64,000 nt of DNA from an uncultured Gammaproteobacteria bacterium (GTDB taxonomy: Bacteria; Patescibacteriota; Microgenomatia; UBA8517). The stretch covers positions 10,358-74,357 of the forward strand of contig CAZWNZ010000001.1 of NCBI GenBank assembly GCA_964635715.1, written 5' to 3'. The stretch's first letter is position 1. Each line of letters starts with the position of its first letter. Both the position numbers and the translations under genes were made by a program. The notes beneath the pieces are model-generated. The model worked only from the letters and a program-made list of their open reading frames with translations. It had not been told where the DNA came from and ran no database searches. Positions 1,537 through 49,704 of the stretch are shown in pieces.

Positions 1537-1567
1537 TCTTTAACGATGCATTGATGTATGATAAAAG
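1537..1567. repeat. 31-bp direct repeat, 5' copy flanking TrpR-like gene 1 (contains tandem ATGCAT dyads and the gene start codons)
   Basis: tctttaacgatgcattgatgtatgataaaag, near-identical to 1992-2022. Confidence 0.8.
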
Positions 1568-1991: not shown

Positions 1992-2022
1992 TCTTTAACG
2001 ATGCATTGATGCATGATAAAAA
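1992..2022. repeat. 31-bp direct repeat, 3' copy flanking TrpR-like gene 1
   Basis: tctttaacgatgcattgatgcatgataaaaa; 29/31 match to 1537-1567. Confidence 0.8.
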
Positions 2023-17808: not shown

Positions 17809-17896
17809 ATCAGTTTGAATCTAGAATCTTGAATGTGGAATCTAGAGGACAAGAGTGATTTTAACAGGAGATTGAATCTAAATCAATAACAGATGA

Positions 17897-18330
17897 TTAA
17901 AATTTTCTATTTACTAGATGCCTATCTGTGTAAATAAGAACGTTTTGACCTTTGAAATTTAGATTATCTCTCTTTACTTTGAAACCTTGATTTTTTGCAT
18001 AATCAATTAGTGATTCTAACCAATTTACATTTGGTTTTTTAACTAAGGGTTCATCAATTACACAACAGGGTCAACCACGGTTACATCCCAGCCGTTTATA
18101 TTTAACAAAAGTGAAAGCAATCCTTTTCCACCACCAACATCTAAGGCTTTGGTGGGTTTGTATTTTTGGCTAAGCCACATCTGTAAAAGCTGAAAACGAA
18201 ACTTGTTGTTCAATCTTCGTTTTGTATTCATTAATCGGATTATACATTTTTTTAAATAATGAATTATATTATCTATTTTAATATTAATTAGTTCGATGGT
18301 TCGAACTATGGTACTATAAATATATGACAC
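17897..18330 (-). pseudogene. class I SAM-dependent methyltransferase remnant, frameshifted after motif I
   Basis: ORF 18058-18330 ends ...ALDVGGGKGLLSLLLNINGWDVTVVDPVV* (motif I). A second frame continues DEPLVKKPNVNWLESLIDYAKNQGFKVKRDNLNFKGQNVLIYTD... to a stop at 17897-17899. Confidence 0.45.
18289..18309. repeat. 21-bp direct repeat, 5' copy flanking TrpR-like gene 2 (8-4-8 dyad tagttcga-tggt-tcgaacta)
   Basis: tagttcgatggttcgaactat, identical to 18765-18785. Confidence 0.85.
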
Positions 18331-18767
18331 AAGTTTCTAGACATTTTATGAATCCTGATATTGAAAAGCGAGTTTATGAGGTATTTATAGAATCTGTTAA
18401 AAACACCAGAAATTCAAATGAAGTAATTGATTTTTTAAATGACTTACTTTCCCCTGTCGAAAAAATTATGATGGCAAAAAGAGTGGCCGTCGCATTTCTT
18501 TTACTTCAGGATAAATATACCTATGACCAAATTTCCAAAACCGTAAAGGTTAGTAGGGGTACAATTGCAAAAATTCATACCACTTTTGCTCTACAAGGAA
18601 AGGGGTATAGAAAAATTCTGGGAGATATTCTTAAAAGGAAAGTTGCGAAAATTGCATTATCGGAACTATTAGACGCGATAACTCTTCTTCCTCCAAAAGG
18701 TGCAAATCTTGGAGAATGGAAAAAGATGAAACGAAATGACAAATTAAAGAGAGAAAGTCCAATATAG
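18324..18767 (+). CDS. TrpR/YerC-like helix-turn-helix DNA-binding protein (paralogue 2 of 3)
   Basis: FLNDLLSPVEKIMMAKRVAVAFLLLQDKYTYDQISKTVKVSRGTIAKI (TrpR helix pattern). Confidence 0.6.
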   Translation: MTQVSRHFMNPDIEKRVYEVFIESVKNTRNSNEVIDFLNDLLSPVEKIMMAKRVAVAFLLLQDKYTYDQISKTVKVSRGTIAKIHTTFALQGKGYRKILGDILKRKVAKIALSELLDAITLLPPKGANLGEWKKMKRNDKLKRESPI

Positions 18768-18785
18768 TTCGATGGTTCGAACTAT
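18765..18785. repeat. 21-bp direct repeat, 3' copy flanking TrpR-like gene 2 (overlaps its TAG stop)
   Basis: tagttcgatggttcgaactat. Confidence 0.85.
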
Positions 18786-18884
18786 CGAACTACTTCGTGA
18801 GATAATCAACGATTAGATTAATTTAGTCTAATAAAAGAAACTATTAAGAAAATTACTTGAAGTCAATAGCAAAAAATGCCGATT

Positions 18885-35089: not shown

Positions 35090-35326
35090 CTAGCTCCCAC
35101 CGTGGGTTTCAAGCTTTTTATTTTTATGAAGAATCTCCATTACTGAAGTTAATTTGTCCGGCCTAATTAATCCTCCTCCCAATATTGAATCTTCCAAAAG
35201 ACTGTTTAATCTTTTCACGGCACGCCGAAGATCAATAATTATCAGCATTACTTGGATACCAACAACAACCAAAAGAAAAGTCAGACTTATTACTACGACG
35301 ATTAAAAGTGTTTGAACTGAATCCAT
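35090..35326 (-). CDS. small single-TM membrane protein
   Basis: TLLIVVVISLTFLLVVVGIQVMLIIIDL hydrophobic N-terminus. Confidence 0.35.
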   Translation of the reverse strand: MDSVQTLLIVVVISLTFLLVVVGIQVMLIIIDLRRAVKRLNSLLEDSILGGGLIRPDKLTSVMEILHKNKKLETHGGS

Positions 35327-35350
35327 AAGTTAGTAACTAGTTACTAGCCC

Positions 35351-35974
35351 CTAGTTTCTGACATTTATTTTGCGCGAAACTGTTGTTGTCTTGCCACTTC
35401 TGGATTGAGCAACAATCGTTATTTCTTCAGCACTGTCAGCAATCTCTATATTAACAGAAAATTTACCATCTTCATCTACCAATACCGGTTGATTGTCGAC
35501 GGTAATCTTAACATCTACATCCGTTGAACCAAAAACTAAAACCGAGTCACCAGCTATAATCTGTCCTTCTACAGGACTCACCACATTTATACTTGGAGGT
35601 GAAACAAATTTTTTATACTGGAAACCCAAATACCCAAGAATGAAAATAACAACAAGAGCAATTCCCAAAATAAACGTAATTCTGGGATTCCATGACTGTT
35701 TTGACGAGATATCAGGCTTAGGATTGATATTTGTTTTTGTTAAAGTGTAGTCCCGTTTAAGAATTGCTGTAGCCGTAGCTTCATCCACATCCAAGGCCGA
35801 AGCAATACTTTTAACGAATCCCAAAACAGTAGGAAAAGGCGGAAGCACCTGCCAATTTTCGTTTTCCAGATCTTTGATAAATGAAGCTTTAATTTTAGTA
35901 ATTTCCTCAAGCTTTTCGTAAGAGTACTTCTTTTCTTTTCGGGCACTAATAATTATTTGGCCAATTTTTCTCAT
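35351..35974 (-). CDS. rodZ: RodZ-like membrane protein with N-terminal helix-turn-helix
   Basis: IKASFIKDLENENWQVLPPFPTVLGFVKSIASALDVDE (RodZ HTH pattern), TM at ~residue 100, C-terminal beta domain. Confidence 0.6.
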   Translation of the reverse strand: MRKIGQIIISARKEKKYSYEKLEEITKIKASFIKDLENENWQVLPPFPTVLGFVKSIASALDVDEATATAILKRDYTLTKTNINPKPDISSKQSWNPRITFILGIALVVIFILGYLGFQYKKFVSPPSINVVSPVEGQIIAGDSVLVFGSTDVDVKITVDNQPVLVDEDGKFSVNIEIADSAEEITIVAQSRSGKTTTVSRKINVRN

Positions 35975-39962: not shown

Positions 39963-40637
39963 TTAAACAAGATTTATTTGTTCCGCTTTCGGAACCTCAT
40001 TTTTCTTATCTTGCCCTTCCGTAGCTTTACGCGAAGGATGGTCTTCCTTCATTTTACGCAATATTTCCTTTAATTGATAGAAGTCATTCTTTTCGGCTTC
40101 CAGAATGCTTCCGTTTCTAAGCGAGGCTGCAGGGTGATACATGGGAATTACAATAAATTTTTTATTATGCCAGGTAATTTCATATTTCTTTCCATGGACC
40201 TGTGAGATGAAAACATTAGGTAAAAACTTAGCCATAGAAAATCTGCCCAAAGTAATTATTACTTCCGGATTTATTATCTCAATAATCTGATCCAGATATT
40301 TGCCGTAAGCTTCAATTTCGTTCGGAAGTGGGTCACGGTTTTCCGGAGGTCTATGGTGAACAATATTTGTAATAAATACTTCTTTCCGTTCCAATCCGGC
40401 AAGAGGAAACAGTTTATCCAAAAGTTTGCCCGCTTGACCGACAAAAGGTTCCCCAATTTTATCTTCATTAAAACCCGGTCCCTCACCGATACAAAGAATT
40501 GAAGTTTCTGTATTTCCTGTACCAAAAACTAGTTTTGTAGCTCCTTTTTTAAGAGGAAGGGTTTCATCTTCATCCATCTTGTCTTTCAATAGGTGTAACA
40601 ATTTGTATCTATTTTTGTTTTTATTGTTTTTTTCCAT
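39963..40637 (-). CDS. udg: uracil-DNA glycosylase, family 4
   Basis: ILCIGEGPGFNEDKIGEPFVGQAGKLLDKL and C-terminal HPAASLRNG motifs. Confidence 0.8.
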   Translation of the reverse strand: MEKNNKNKNRYKLLHLLKDKMDEDETLPLKKGATKLVFGTGNTETSILCIGEGPGFNEDKIGEPFVGQAGKLLDKLFPLAGLERKEVFITNIVHHRPPENRDPLPNEIEAYGKYLDQIIEIINPEVIITLGRFSMAKFLPNVFISQVHGKKYEITWHNKKFIVIPMYHPAASLRNGSILEAEKNDFYQLKEILRKMKEDHPSRKATEGQDKKNEVPKAEQINLV

Positions 40638-40655
40638 AAAATTGATCCTAAATAC

Positions 40656-40679
40656 TACATTACTATATAGTAATGTAGT
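40656..40679. repeat. perfect 24-bp palindrome ctacattactat|atagtaatgtag, same family as those flanking TrpR-like gene 3; orphan copy 16 nt upstream of the udg start
   Basis: Compare cttcaatactatatagtattgaag (49195-49218) and ctacaatactatatagtattgtag (49676-49699). Confidence 0.8.
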
Positions 40680-40685
40680 GGAGTA

Positions 40686-41165
40686 TTATTCTCTCTCGTT
40701 GATAAACTCTACCTTGTTTTTAACCGTGTCATACACTGCAAAGTTTATTCCCATCACCGTTGCTCCGGGACGTATCATTTTGACAGGCGTTTCAACACTT
40801 TCATATTTTGAATGATAATGGCCATTTATTATTAAATCCAATTTTTTACCTCCAAAATATTCCCTATTATCAGATGGTTTATGAGTAATTCCAATACTCC
40901 TTCCACCAATACTAACAATCAAATATTCTTCTCCAAATTGTTTTGCTTTCTTTTTTAAATCACCAACCAGTTCACTATCCACATCTGCATTTCCCAAAAC
41001 TGTATAAAAAGGGATTCCGGAAAGTCTTACCACTTCGGCAGAAGTTGATGTATCCCAATCTCCTGCGTGAATTATGCTGTTTACTCTAATTTTTTTTGCA
41101 AAGCCGGCAATATGCTTAAGATTTGCTATGTTGCCATGACTATCCCCAATGATTAGCACCTTCAT
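40686..41165 (-). CDS. metallophosphoesterase (YfcE-like)
   Basis: MKVLIIGDSHGNI...IHAGDW...GNAD phosphoesterase motifs. Confidence 0.75.
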   Translation of the reverse strand: MKVLIIGDSHGNIANLKHIAGFAKKIRVNSIIHAGDWDTSTSAEVVRLSGIPFYTVLGNADVDSELVGDLKKKAKQFGEEYLIVSIGGRSIGITHKPSDNREYFGGKKLDLIINGHYHSKYESVETPVKMIRPGATVMGINFAVYDTVKNKVEFINERE

Positions 41166-48878: not shown

Positions 48879-49194
48879 AAATCAAATACTCAATTCCAGA
48901 TACAAGTTTAACTCATTAAAGCTAAAAACTCAAGCTACATAAGTAAGTTAATTTTGAGTATTAGTCTTCCCGAACATCTGCTGAAGTTCTTTTTCCGTCG
49001 GGTTTCTTTTTTCCTATTCACATTTTTTCATTAACCTGCAAATAGGACAGTCATCAATAATACAATTATTGCTTGATACCATAATGGCGTCACCTACTTT
49101 TTTACTGGATGTTTTCATCCTACCGTTTATAAATTTATATCATTCAAATCTGCAAATATTCAAGTGATTATTTTTATGATATATTGAATATATA

Positions 49195-49218
49195 CTTCAA
49201 TACTATATAGTATTGAAG
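49195..49218. repeat. perfect 24-bp palindrome cttcaatactat|atagtattgaag, 4 nt upstream of the TrpR-like gene 3 start
   Basis: Self-complementary by inspection. Confidence 0.85.
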
Positions 49219-49222
49219 TGCT

Positions 49223-49672
49223 ATGACTAAAATTTCAAAATTGCCATTAAGATCTGATGTTTGGAATCGGATTTTTGATTTGTTCGTCAGTACCCTATCC
49301 AACCAAAGAGATAAAAAGAAATTATCAAATTTTATTAATGATTTTTTCTCGCCAACTGAAAGAATAATGTTTGCAAAAAGGTTGGCTATTGCGGTTCTGG
49401 TCGCAAAAGGCCAAGATTATCAAAGTATCCACGAAATTTTGAAAGTAAGTCCACCAACTATTGCAAAACTTAGTTTAAGAATCAAATATATGGGGGAGGG
49501 TTTAAACCCTGTTATTAGAGATATTTTTAAGAGTCAGGCGTTGCAAATTATATGGAAAGAAACTGAAGATCTGTTTGATTTGCCAACAAAAGGTAACTTA
49601 AAATCGCCCGAAAGATTTAAAAGAAAACTTCGAAGAGTGAAGCAAATTAATAAAATGAGATCGGAATTTTAA
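49223..49672 (+). CDS. TrpR/YerC-like helix-turn-helix DNA-binding protein (paralogue 3 of 3)
   Basis: FINDFFSPTERIMFAKRLAIAVLVAKGQDYQSIHEILKVSPPTIAKL. Confidence 0.6.
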   Translation: MTKISKLPLRSDVWNRIFDLFVSTLSNQRDKKKLSNFINDFFSPTERIMFAKRLAIAVLVAKGQDYQSIHEILKVSPPTIAKLSLRIKYMGEGLNPVIRDIFKSQALQIIWKETEDLFDLPTKGNLKSPERFKRKLRRVKQINKMRSEF

Positions 49673-49675
49673 CTA

Positions 49676-49704
49676 CTACAATACTATATAGTATTGTAGT
49701 TTTT
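49676..49704 (+). terminator. perfect 24-bp palindrome ctacaatactat|atagtattgtag plus TTTTT; 3' copy of the gene-3 flanking repeat and probable terminator
   Basis: Begins 3 nt after the TAA stop; followed by ttttt at 49700-49704. Confidence 0.6.

Follow-up and report, generated by a model that had tools for sequence, protein, structure and literature searches.

A 26-bp palindrome that brackets a TrpR-like gene recurs ahead of udg and at dispersed positions in Woesebacteria genomes

Introduction

The locus studied here raises the question of why a perfect palindrome lies between two co-directional genes, directly ahead of a gene for a DNA-repair enzyme, and what connects it to the two similar palindromes that flank a TrpR-like gene in the same stretch of DNA. 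The first-pass annotation placed it in the promoter region of the repair gene, udg, and assigned udg to the regulon of the TrpR-like protein. To our knowledge, almost nothing is known about gene regulation in bacteria of the Candidate Phyla Radiation (CPR), including the Woesebacteria. Bacteria of this radiation cannot be grown alone.

TrpR-family factors recognize palindromes of about 20 bp with GNACT half-sites at 8-bp spacing and often autoregulate (PMC9413887). HisR, a member of this family, has a lineage-specific 20-bp palindrome with the consensus cacTTTAnnnnnnTAAAgtg, which precedes his genes for biosynthesis and transport; roughly half of all hisR genes have such a site themselves (PMC9413887).

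Results

Three perfect 26-bp palindromes in the window

A palindrome scan of the window, i.e., the whole 64-kb stretch of DNA analyzed here, gave three perfect 26-bp palindromes with the consensus ACTWCAWTACTATATAGTAWTGWAGT (40654–40679, 49194–49219, and 49675–49700). The pair at 49194–49219 and 49675–49700 brackets the third of three TrpR-like genes (TrpR3), and the remaining copy, the orphan, separates a metallophosphoesterase (MPE) gene from udg. The earlier gene calls (three TrpR-like genes, the uracil-DNA glycosylase [UDG], and the metallophosphoesterase) are all upheld by Pfam, and homologs of the UDG carry the name "UDG family 4" in their sources. From the names of homologs and from synteny, the window belongs to a Candidatus Woesebacteria (CPR/Patescibacteria) bacterium.

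39963–40637, minus strand: family-4-type uracil-DNA glycosylase gene, udg (Pfam PF03167, E 7.6e-29)
40638–40653, minus strand: 16-nt spacer from the palindrome to the udg ATG, atttaggatcaatttt
40654–40679, no strand: orphan 26-bp perfect palindrome ACTACATTACTATATAGTAATGTAGT at the MPE-udg intercistronic junction
40686–41165, minus strand: MPE gene (Pfam Metallophos_2, E 3.9e-19)
49184–49211, plus strand: promoter-like TTGAAT-16-TATAGT of TrpR3 (promoter scan)
49194–49219, no strand: upstream copy ACTTCAATACTATATAGTATTGAAGT, 3 nt before the TrpR3 ATG, kept in 11 orthologs
49223–49672, plus strand: TrpR3, YerC/TrpR family, 149 aa (Pfam PF01371)
49675–49700, no strand: downstream copy ACTACAATACTATATAGTATTGTAGT, 2 nt past the TrpR3 stop, facing a convergent NUDIX gene

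The orphan had been described as a perfect 24-bp palindrome at 40656–40679; the sequence is as described, and the perfect dyad spans 26 bp. Its reported position, just past the MPE stop and 16 nt ahead of the udg ATG, is correct, the distance to the MPE stop being 6 nt. The copies beside TrpR3 have the ends ACTTCAAT...ATTGAAGT (49194–49219) and ACTACAAT...ATTGTAGT (49675–49700), and the three 26-mers differ solely at the mirrored positions 4/23 and 7/20, which confirms that the copies are distinguished by paired substitutions only. At up to three mismatches, the consensus has exactly three matches in the window, with 0.00 expected from shuffles. The 12-nt core TACTATATAGTA, which the three copies share, also occurs exactly three times (0.08 expected). 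The orphan is a true member of the family. Sixty Markov simulations of the window gave a mean of 0.43 palindromes with arms of ≥9 per 64 kb and none with an arm of 13.

The upstream copy overlaps the predicted promoter of TrpR3

Both Pfam and structure prediction assign TrpR3 to the YerC/TrpR family. Its PF01371 (Trp_repressor) score is 41 bits against a cutoff of 27, and the top Foldseek matches of the AlphaFold2 model (pLDDT 80) are 3kor, 3frw, 3g1c, and E. coli TrpR at TM scores of 0.6 to 0.8, including the E. coli TrpR-DNA complexes 1tro and 1trr. The model also contains about 50 extra residues at the C terminus, which form two helices.

The −10 box TATAGT of the TrpR3 promoter-like sequence is the center of the upstream palindrome, and transcription is predicted to begin where this palindrome ends, which would give an mRNA with no leader or almost none. 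A −35 box (TTGCAA/TTGACA) is kept at the matching distance in the TrpR3 orthologs, whose best −35 scores average 5.17 of 6 vs. a background of 3.38. With the −10 box of a conserved promoter inside it, the upstream copy most likely serves as an autoregulatory operator that covers this box and the transcription start.

The TrpR3 orthologs (60 to 75% identity) occupy the same slot between nusA and nudix/dnaJ, in an orientation opposite to that of their neighbors. Every ortholog examined has one palindrome 0 to 3 nt before the ATG and a second one 2 to 22 nt past the stop (2 to 4 nt in all but one). Five different variants occur at the upstream position, and all are perfect. A protein-based scan of genome contigs with TrpR3 found no relatives, and DNA-pattern scans did find sites. 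As an observation on the slot itself, some close relatives (UDG 75 to 84% identical) lack the TrpR3 gene together with both palindromes, such that the module is present or absent as a whole (empty dnaJ/nudix-nusA slots at L108:1340-1440, L196:1430-1815, and L200:1660-1890). This clean absence would fit either gain or loss of the module. A mobile gene cassette was ruled out as the main reading because the synteny of TrpR3 is intact in every carrier.

Other TrpR-like genes have brackets of their own

The two other TrpR-like genes of the window are each bracketed on both sides by a gene-specific motif, which for TrpR1 is AACGATGCATTGATGYATGAT, with copies at 1542 and 1997.

1542–1562, plus strand: TrpR1 upstream motif AACGATGCATTGATGTATGAT, ending 6 nt before the ATG at 1569
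1569 (ATG)–1976, plus strand: TrpR-like gene 1, TrpR1 (PF01371)
1997–2017, plus strand: TrpR1 downstream motif AACGATGCATTGATGCATGAT, 20 nt past the stop
18290–18315, no strand: TrpR2 upstream 26-bp quasi-palindrome AGTTCGATGGTTCGAACTATGGTACT
18324–18767, plus strand: TrpR-like gene 2, TrpR2 (PF01371)
18766–18791, no strand: TrpR2 downstream 26-bp near-perfect palindrome AGTTCGATGGTTCGAACTATCGAACT, overlapping the stop codon

In L201, a TrpR2 ortholog (69% identical) lies between fusA and rpsG and is accompanied by two copies of a different 26-bp palindrome, AGTACCATGATTCGAATCRTGGTACT, at about 9924 and about 10434. Both copies have switched to another palindrome; thus, the copies of a bracket change together between genomes. 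The bracket is a property of the TrpR-like gene family. More distant TrpR-like genes (29 to 35% identity) from other CPR lineages have the TrpR3-type palindrome on both sides, and their proteins share S-P-x-T-[IV]-A-[KR] in the recognition helix; the ACGAT variant of the half-site was seen next to no proteins other than the two with SPSTIAR in that helix. The TrpR1 motif has little or no RNA hairpin potential (−4 kcal/mol, z −0.3) and, therefore, the feature common to the brackets is sequence identity and not RNA structure. The TrpR1 and TrpR2 motifs gave no extra copies in 1.57 Mb of DNA and were set aside as dispersed families, on weak evidence because that DNA had been chosen for TrpR3 sites.

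Two observations concern the surroundings of TrpR-like genes. A further such gene, at L132:2533-2943, encodes a different recognition helix (GKHTIQETG) and is followed by a GC-rich 26-bp inverted repeat, AGTGCCGTGGTATAGTCCACGGCACT, at about 2950-2975, with a partial copy upstream. In the window, a 90-aa ORF (18058–18330, minus strand; region 17809–18330) occupies the interval from fusA to TrpR2, with an overlap at the start of TrpR2; it matches only the N-terminal ~30 residues of SAM-methyltransferase profiles (TehB, Methyltransf_23) and is probably a gene remnant.

A dispersed family of largely symmetric sites

Species-representative genomes were scanned with CAWTACTATATAGTAWTG and metagenomes with a degenerate 26-mer, which gave 94 nonredundant sites. 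The family has about 10 to 12 sites per genome; the Woesebacteria genome LBVU01 has at least 12 on four contigs, and one 553.7-kb contig has 11, approximately one per 50 kb. No family site was found in the viral contigs scanned, and a phage origin was ruled out on this basis.

Perfectly symmetric sites make up 75 of the 94 (80%) vs. 18% expected from random pairing of the eight observed half-site variants. This excess and the five perfect variants upstream of TrpR3 bear out the earlier claim of compensatory change. The other 19 sites are asymmetric hybrids, one of which is kept inside UvrC of three genomes; thus, perfect pairing is not obligatory. Template switching at quasipalindromes homogenizes the arms of inverted repeats (PMC7202029, PMC8604942, PMC5941160). 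Because it can yield symmetry without selection, symmetry alone is weaker evidence for a functional hairpin than had been assumed, and mutation probably contributes to the surplus of perfectly symmetric sites. The earlier argument from symmetry to function therefore stands insofar as symmetry is upheld through paired changes, but the asymmetric hybrids and template-switch homogenization keep it from being proof of a hairpin. At the freely varying W positions, 80% vs. 18% symmetry is beyond the needs of a homodimer operator and needs an added cause, either template switching or a hairpin or cruciform requirement.

About 25 of the 94 sites flank TrpR-like genes. About 24 of the 69 orphan sites are intragenic, and the intergenic ones are mostly near a stop codon (−6 to +30 nt). 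Convergent gene pairs enclose thirteen sites and divergent pairs five, and about twenty sites occupy tandem junctions with a common layout (stop, −6 to 9 nt, site, 9 to 21 nt, START), of which the udg copy, with distances of 6 and 16 nt, is typical. This placement, with intragenic sites and more convergent than divergent ones, is unusual for a transcription factor, and the earlier assignment of udg to a classical TrpR3 regulon is not borne out, many sites being inside genes or between convergent genes. Genes near the sites recur in two themes, envelope glycosylation and DNA repair/nucleases (udg, uvrC, uvrD-type, 5'-3' exonuclease, TatD, and SNase), and in this respect the family looks regulon-like. 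The SOS box of LexA was ruled out, since the regulator is not LexA-like and the repair-gene neighbors are no more than a suggestive theme.

Tails of the form WTTTRRG, similar to the udg spacer, trail many family sites. The tail ATTTGAGCAC was rejected as a separate element because not all sites have it; some lineages have flanks that prolong the dyad in its place (ATNNGTCG), and the two sides vary independently. As a separate observation, in Ga0172379 metagenome contigs the dyad is ~8 bp longer per side, with the consensus ATNNGTCG and with outer positions that vary independently, unlike the inner 26 bp (L141:6885, L112:4699, L119:1181, L126:2963, L142:6678, L164:4550, and L193:1707); the L141 site is a 42-bp perfect palindrome. 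Also, at least five copies of cggCAATACTATATAGTATTGccg, a different palindrome on the same core TACTATATAGTA, are present on separate contigs of the unrelated Elusimicrobiota MAG JAIRQB01 (L051, L053, L054, L070, and L076); these may be an independent repeat family.

Sites inside genes are under selection at the nucleotide level

Conserved genes contain about 24 of the 94 sites, in frame and at conserved positions. These genes encode UvrC, several GT4 glycosyltransferases, an S11 D-Ala-D-Ala carboxypeptidase, a membrane protein, TatD, an SNase homolog, and a CYTH protein, with the following examples.

Inside UvrC: L016:4826, L092:4859, L122:8384, L043:447
Inside S11 peptidase: L074:2690, L088:936, L135:765
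Inside GT4: L026:833, L048:2991, L172:2526, L031:3824, L124:2297, L158:754

Every intragenic site is translated as T[ST][IL]LYS[IN][EV]V, with no use of the other open frame. Between orthologs of five host-gene families, the site is 92 to 100% identical vs. 39 to 80% for the flanks (45 nt of coding sequence on each side), a difference that shows selection acting on the nucleotide sequence itself.

The site at the udg junction is lineage specific

The orphan lies at an intercistronic junction within a co-directional AAA-MPE-UDG-RNase J-FtsK cluster, the gene order of which is kept among relatives. The spacer before udg contains an AGGA Shine-Dalgarno-like motif (40646–40649). On the udg strand, the promoter scan gave no sigma-70-like match at the orphan site, the best −35 score there is 3 of 6, which equals background, and orphan sites that precede a START have a mean score of 3.59, also at background level. 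Because there is no promoter-like match on the udg strand, the idea that the palindrome sits in a udg promoter region is not supported; the orphan overlaps no predicted udg promoter, and with neither a −35 box nor scores above background, a promoter role for udg was rejected.

The udg upstream regions of relatives compare as follows, with the co-occurrence of site and TrpR3 judged from partial contigs.

Window: site at the MPE-udg junction (ACTACATT variant); TrpR3 in slot
L106/L107 (UDG 76 to 78% identical): site at the junction (ACTTAATT..., perfect); TrpR3 slot outside contig
L005: no site at the junction; TrpR3 in slot
L108/109: no site at the junction; no TrpR3 in slot
L110/111: no site at the junction; TrpR3 slot outside contig
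L196/197: no site at the junction; no TrpR3 in slot
L198/199: no site at the junction; TrpR3 slot outside contig
L200: no site at the junction; no TrpR3 in slot

In L106/L107, the site overlaps the MPE stop and the udg ATG lies 15 nt beyond; this variant differs from that of the window, yet it is also perfect. The comparison thus brought a second lineage with the site, but six of the eight lineages lack it, one of them (L005) with TrpR3. The udg site is real and recurrent but lineage specific, being present in two lineages and absent in six. Site and slot TrpR3 are absent together in three lineages (L108, L196, and L200; partial contigs), in which no family site was found anywhere in 17 to 21 kb.

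Discussion

Here, we identify a family of 26-bp palindromic sites that is conserved, is under selection at the nucleotide level, and at the TrpR3 gene overlaps the predicted promoter of a gene for a protein with the TrpR fold. We consider it probable that the palindrome at 40654–40679 is a third copy of the TrpR3 site, with TrpR3 autoregulating its own gene and with the udg copy serving as a roadblock-type operator. The sequence context makes the link of the site family to TrpR3 a strong one, and we infer that TrpR3 is the binding factor.

We suggest that TrpR3, a helix-turn-helix protein of the YerC/TrpR family with additional helices at its C terminus, binds the 26-bp site. Protein bound to the upstream copy, which includes the −10 box and extends to the transcription start, would occlude RNA polymerase, and the TrpR3 gene would most likely be autoregulated. 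The downstream copy could support looping over about 480 bp or insulate TrpR3 from the convergent dnaKJ-nudix operon. At udg, bound TrpR3 would block or attenuate read-through into udg and the genes behind it, and at the other sites it would impede read-through within long co-directional gene arrays. Both the roadblock or looping action and the involvement of an effector are predictions. The site is a palindrome of two half-sites, and its 26-bp dyad is longer than the 20 bp of TrpR and HisR. Within it, ACT recurs at an 8-bp interval (first letters at positions 1 and 9), as does AGT (positions 16 and 24), and two dimers may bind the site in tandem. Recognition by a dimer of dimers, together with template-switch homogenization of the arms, probably explains the near-perfect dyad symmetry.

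E. coli TrpR (operators at trpEDCBA, aroH, and trpR) has the same fold and Pfam family as TrpR3, a palindromic operator with ACT/AGT elements at 8-bp periodicity, and an operator over its own promoter, as we suggest for TrpR3. By contrast, the TrpR3 site is longer (26 vs. about 20 bp) and has a different sequence, TrpR3 carries the C-terminal extension of about 50 residues in two helices, a second predicted operator follows directly after its stop codon, sites also occur inside coding genes and between convergent genes, and there is no link to tryptophan genes. The solved structures closest to TrpR3 are those of YerC/HisR (3kor, 3frw, and 3g1c), HisR (YerC) being known from Firmicutes; however, TrpR3 sites are not at his genes and differ from the HisR consensus, and three bracketed TrpR-like paralogs are present per genome here, whereas HisR is usually single copy.

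The proposed action at udg and downstream of TrpR3 has precedents. Operators can lie within coding sequence, and elongation can be blocked by a protein bound inside the transcription unit; known auxiliary or intragenic operators that act by looping or as roadblocks include lac O1-O2 and gal OE-OI and the CcpA, CodY, and PurR roadblocks. Like the lac and gal systems, TrpR3 has a promoter operator and a second identical site, here about 480 bp downstream. It differs from the lac, gal, and CcpA-type operators in that the second site is just past the gene's own stop, an arrangement that recurs in three paralogs, and in that looping or roadblock is predicted here from the layout.

A related reading, which we hold as a tentative possibility, is that the sites are not ordinary operators but genome-wide TrpR3-bound punctuation sites, i.e., roadblocks, insulators, or organizers, at fixed places in Woesebacteria and related CPR genomes. 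Some of them would be embedded in the coding sequence of UvrC, glycosyltransferases, a carboxypeptidase, and nucleases, each time encoding T-S-I-L-Y-S-I-E-V. A hairpin- or cruciform-dependent process would keep their symmetry, and each TrpR-like paralog would be a self-bracketed module splitting long co-directional operons such as the str operon and dnaKJ-nusA-infB.

It is unlikely that the family acts at the RNA level, as an 11- to 13-bp hairpin serving as a weak or bidirectional terminator, as a 3' or 5' mRNA-stabilizing stem-loop, or as a processing site. The predicted hairpin of about −12.5 kcal/mol (z −2.4 to −4.7), arm complementarity kept through paired changes, ATTT or TTTT after many sites, and the preference of intergenic orphans for stop codons and convergent gene pairs are all consistent with such an element. 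However, structure alone leaves the invariant ACT, TACTATATAGTA, and AGT across genera unexplained, and the stems are AU-rich with three G-C pairs and short or absent U-tracts. The scan called the orphan terminator-like, though on the plus strand, i.e., antisense to udg and MPE. On the sense strand, where its tail is AUUUAGGA, the orphan lacks a G+C-rich stem with a U-tract directly behind it, and a canonical Rho-independent terminator was ruled out; the copy downstream of TrpR3 was not flagged. The placement of about a quarter of the sites inside conserved coding regions is not that of terminators, and the copy that precedes the TrpR3 ATG by 0 to 3 nt is located at the predicted transcription start or ahead of it. 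The analogous TrpR1 motif without a hairpin and the asymmetric hybrids conserved in UvrC of three genomes also argue against an RNA element. An Rfam search of 16 loci matched no family, which ruled out a known RNA family.

A gene bracketed by cognate hairpin-forming palindromes, with scattered copies mostly at gene 3' ends, resembles a REPtron (REP plus RAYT). The site at the MPE-udg junction is present in some relatives and absent in others, as is the TrpR3 module in its slot, a pattern that may reflect insertion polymorphism; sites are in excess in convergent intergenic regions; and TrpR3 has a weak match to HTH_23, a transposase-type HTH (E 0.002). The family could accordingly be a selfish or mobile dispersed palindrome (REP/RAYT, MITE, or the solo footprint of a terminal repeat), with TrpR3 associated or domesticated and the udg copy a sporadic insertion without a role in udg expression, a reading we regard as quite improbable; a REP/RAYT-like or footprint origin in the past is conceivable. 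Neither a transposase (HUH/Y1 or DDE) nor a HUH domain is present, the bracketed gene encoding a TrpR-like HTH protein only, and the number of copies per genome is tens of times lower than that of REPtrons. The sites occupy orthologous positions in diverged genomes, are far better conserved than their flanks (92 to 100% where intragenic), and are under nucleotide-level selection. TrpR3 synteny in all carriers, the lack of target-site duplications and of larger element bodies, and the absence of matches in viral contigs also speak against mobility. Finally, inserting 26 bp would disrupt a reading frame, yet every intragenic copy is in frame, with the same frame used each time.

Least probable, and lacking specific support, are chromosome-organizing sites (parS/ParB, Ter/Tus-RTP, or Noc/SlmA-like) bound by TrpR3 and kept wherever they fall: the number and spread of sites along the chromosome, the many highly conserved intragenic copies, and the overlap of one site with the binding protein's own promoter, as at TerB/tus and TerI/rtp, would fit, but the sites do not cluster, their perfect dyad symmetry is unlike that of polar Ter sites, the protein is of the TrpR type rather than ParB, Tus, or RTP, and the recurrent neighbor themes look regulon-like. 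An origin-proximal parS-like cluster was ruled out by the dispersal of the sites, eleven over the 553.7-kb contig, and by a protein that is not of the ParB family.

Returning to the favored reading, in which TrpR3 binds the 26-bp site as an operator, the TrpR protein family and the principle of the palindromic autoregulatory operator are already known. A literature search for TrpR-like palindromes in CPR bacteria found nothing, and relative to the literature searched, the 26-bp site, the operator-gene-operator bracket in three paralogs that coevolves between genomes, the conserved dispersed set including in-frame intragenic sites, and the CPR setting are new. A regulator family, that of the abundant YerC/TrpR-like protein, is here paired with a candidate DNA site purely from sequence; the site is conserved, selected at the nucleotide level, and easy to synthesize, and the pairing, if true, would give the first site map for such a regulator. 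The bracket and the in-frame intragenic sites are unusual for the TrpR family, and this layout may offer a view of how tiny genomes built of very long co-directional arrays regulate their genes.

Two minor observations lie outside the site family. The window contains a 16-bp perfect palindrome, TAGTAACTAGTTACTA, at 35331–35346, between a 78-aa ORF (35090–35326, minus strand) and a 207-aa ORF (35351–35974, minus strand), the latter with syntenic homologs in relatives that carry HTH_25/HTH_19 domains. The identical 16-mer occurs in another CPR genome (L072:140-155), followed by further CTAGTT repeats, and it may be a separate operator family. In one relative (L001:2404-3768), a reverse transcriptase (RVT_1) adjoins a bAvd gene between the S15/PNPase genes and the IF-2 region, with no counterpart in the window; this pair suggests a diversity-generating retroelement.
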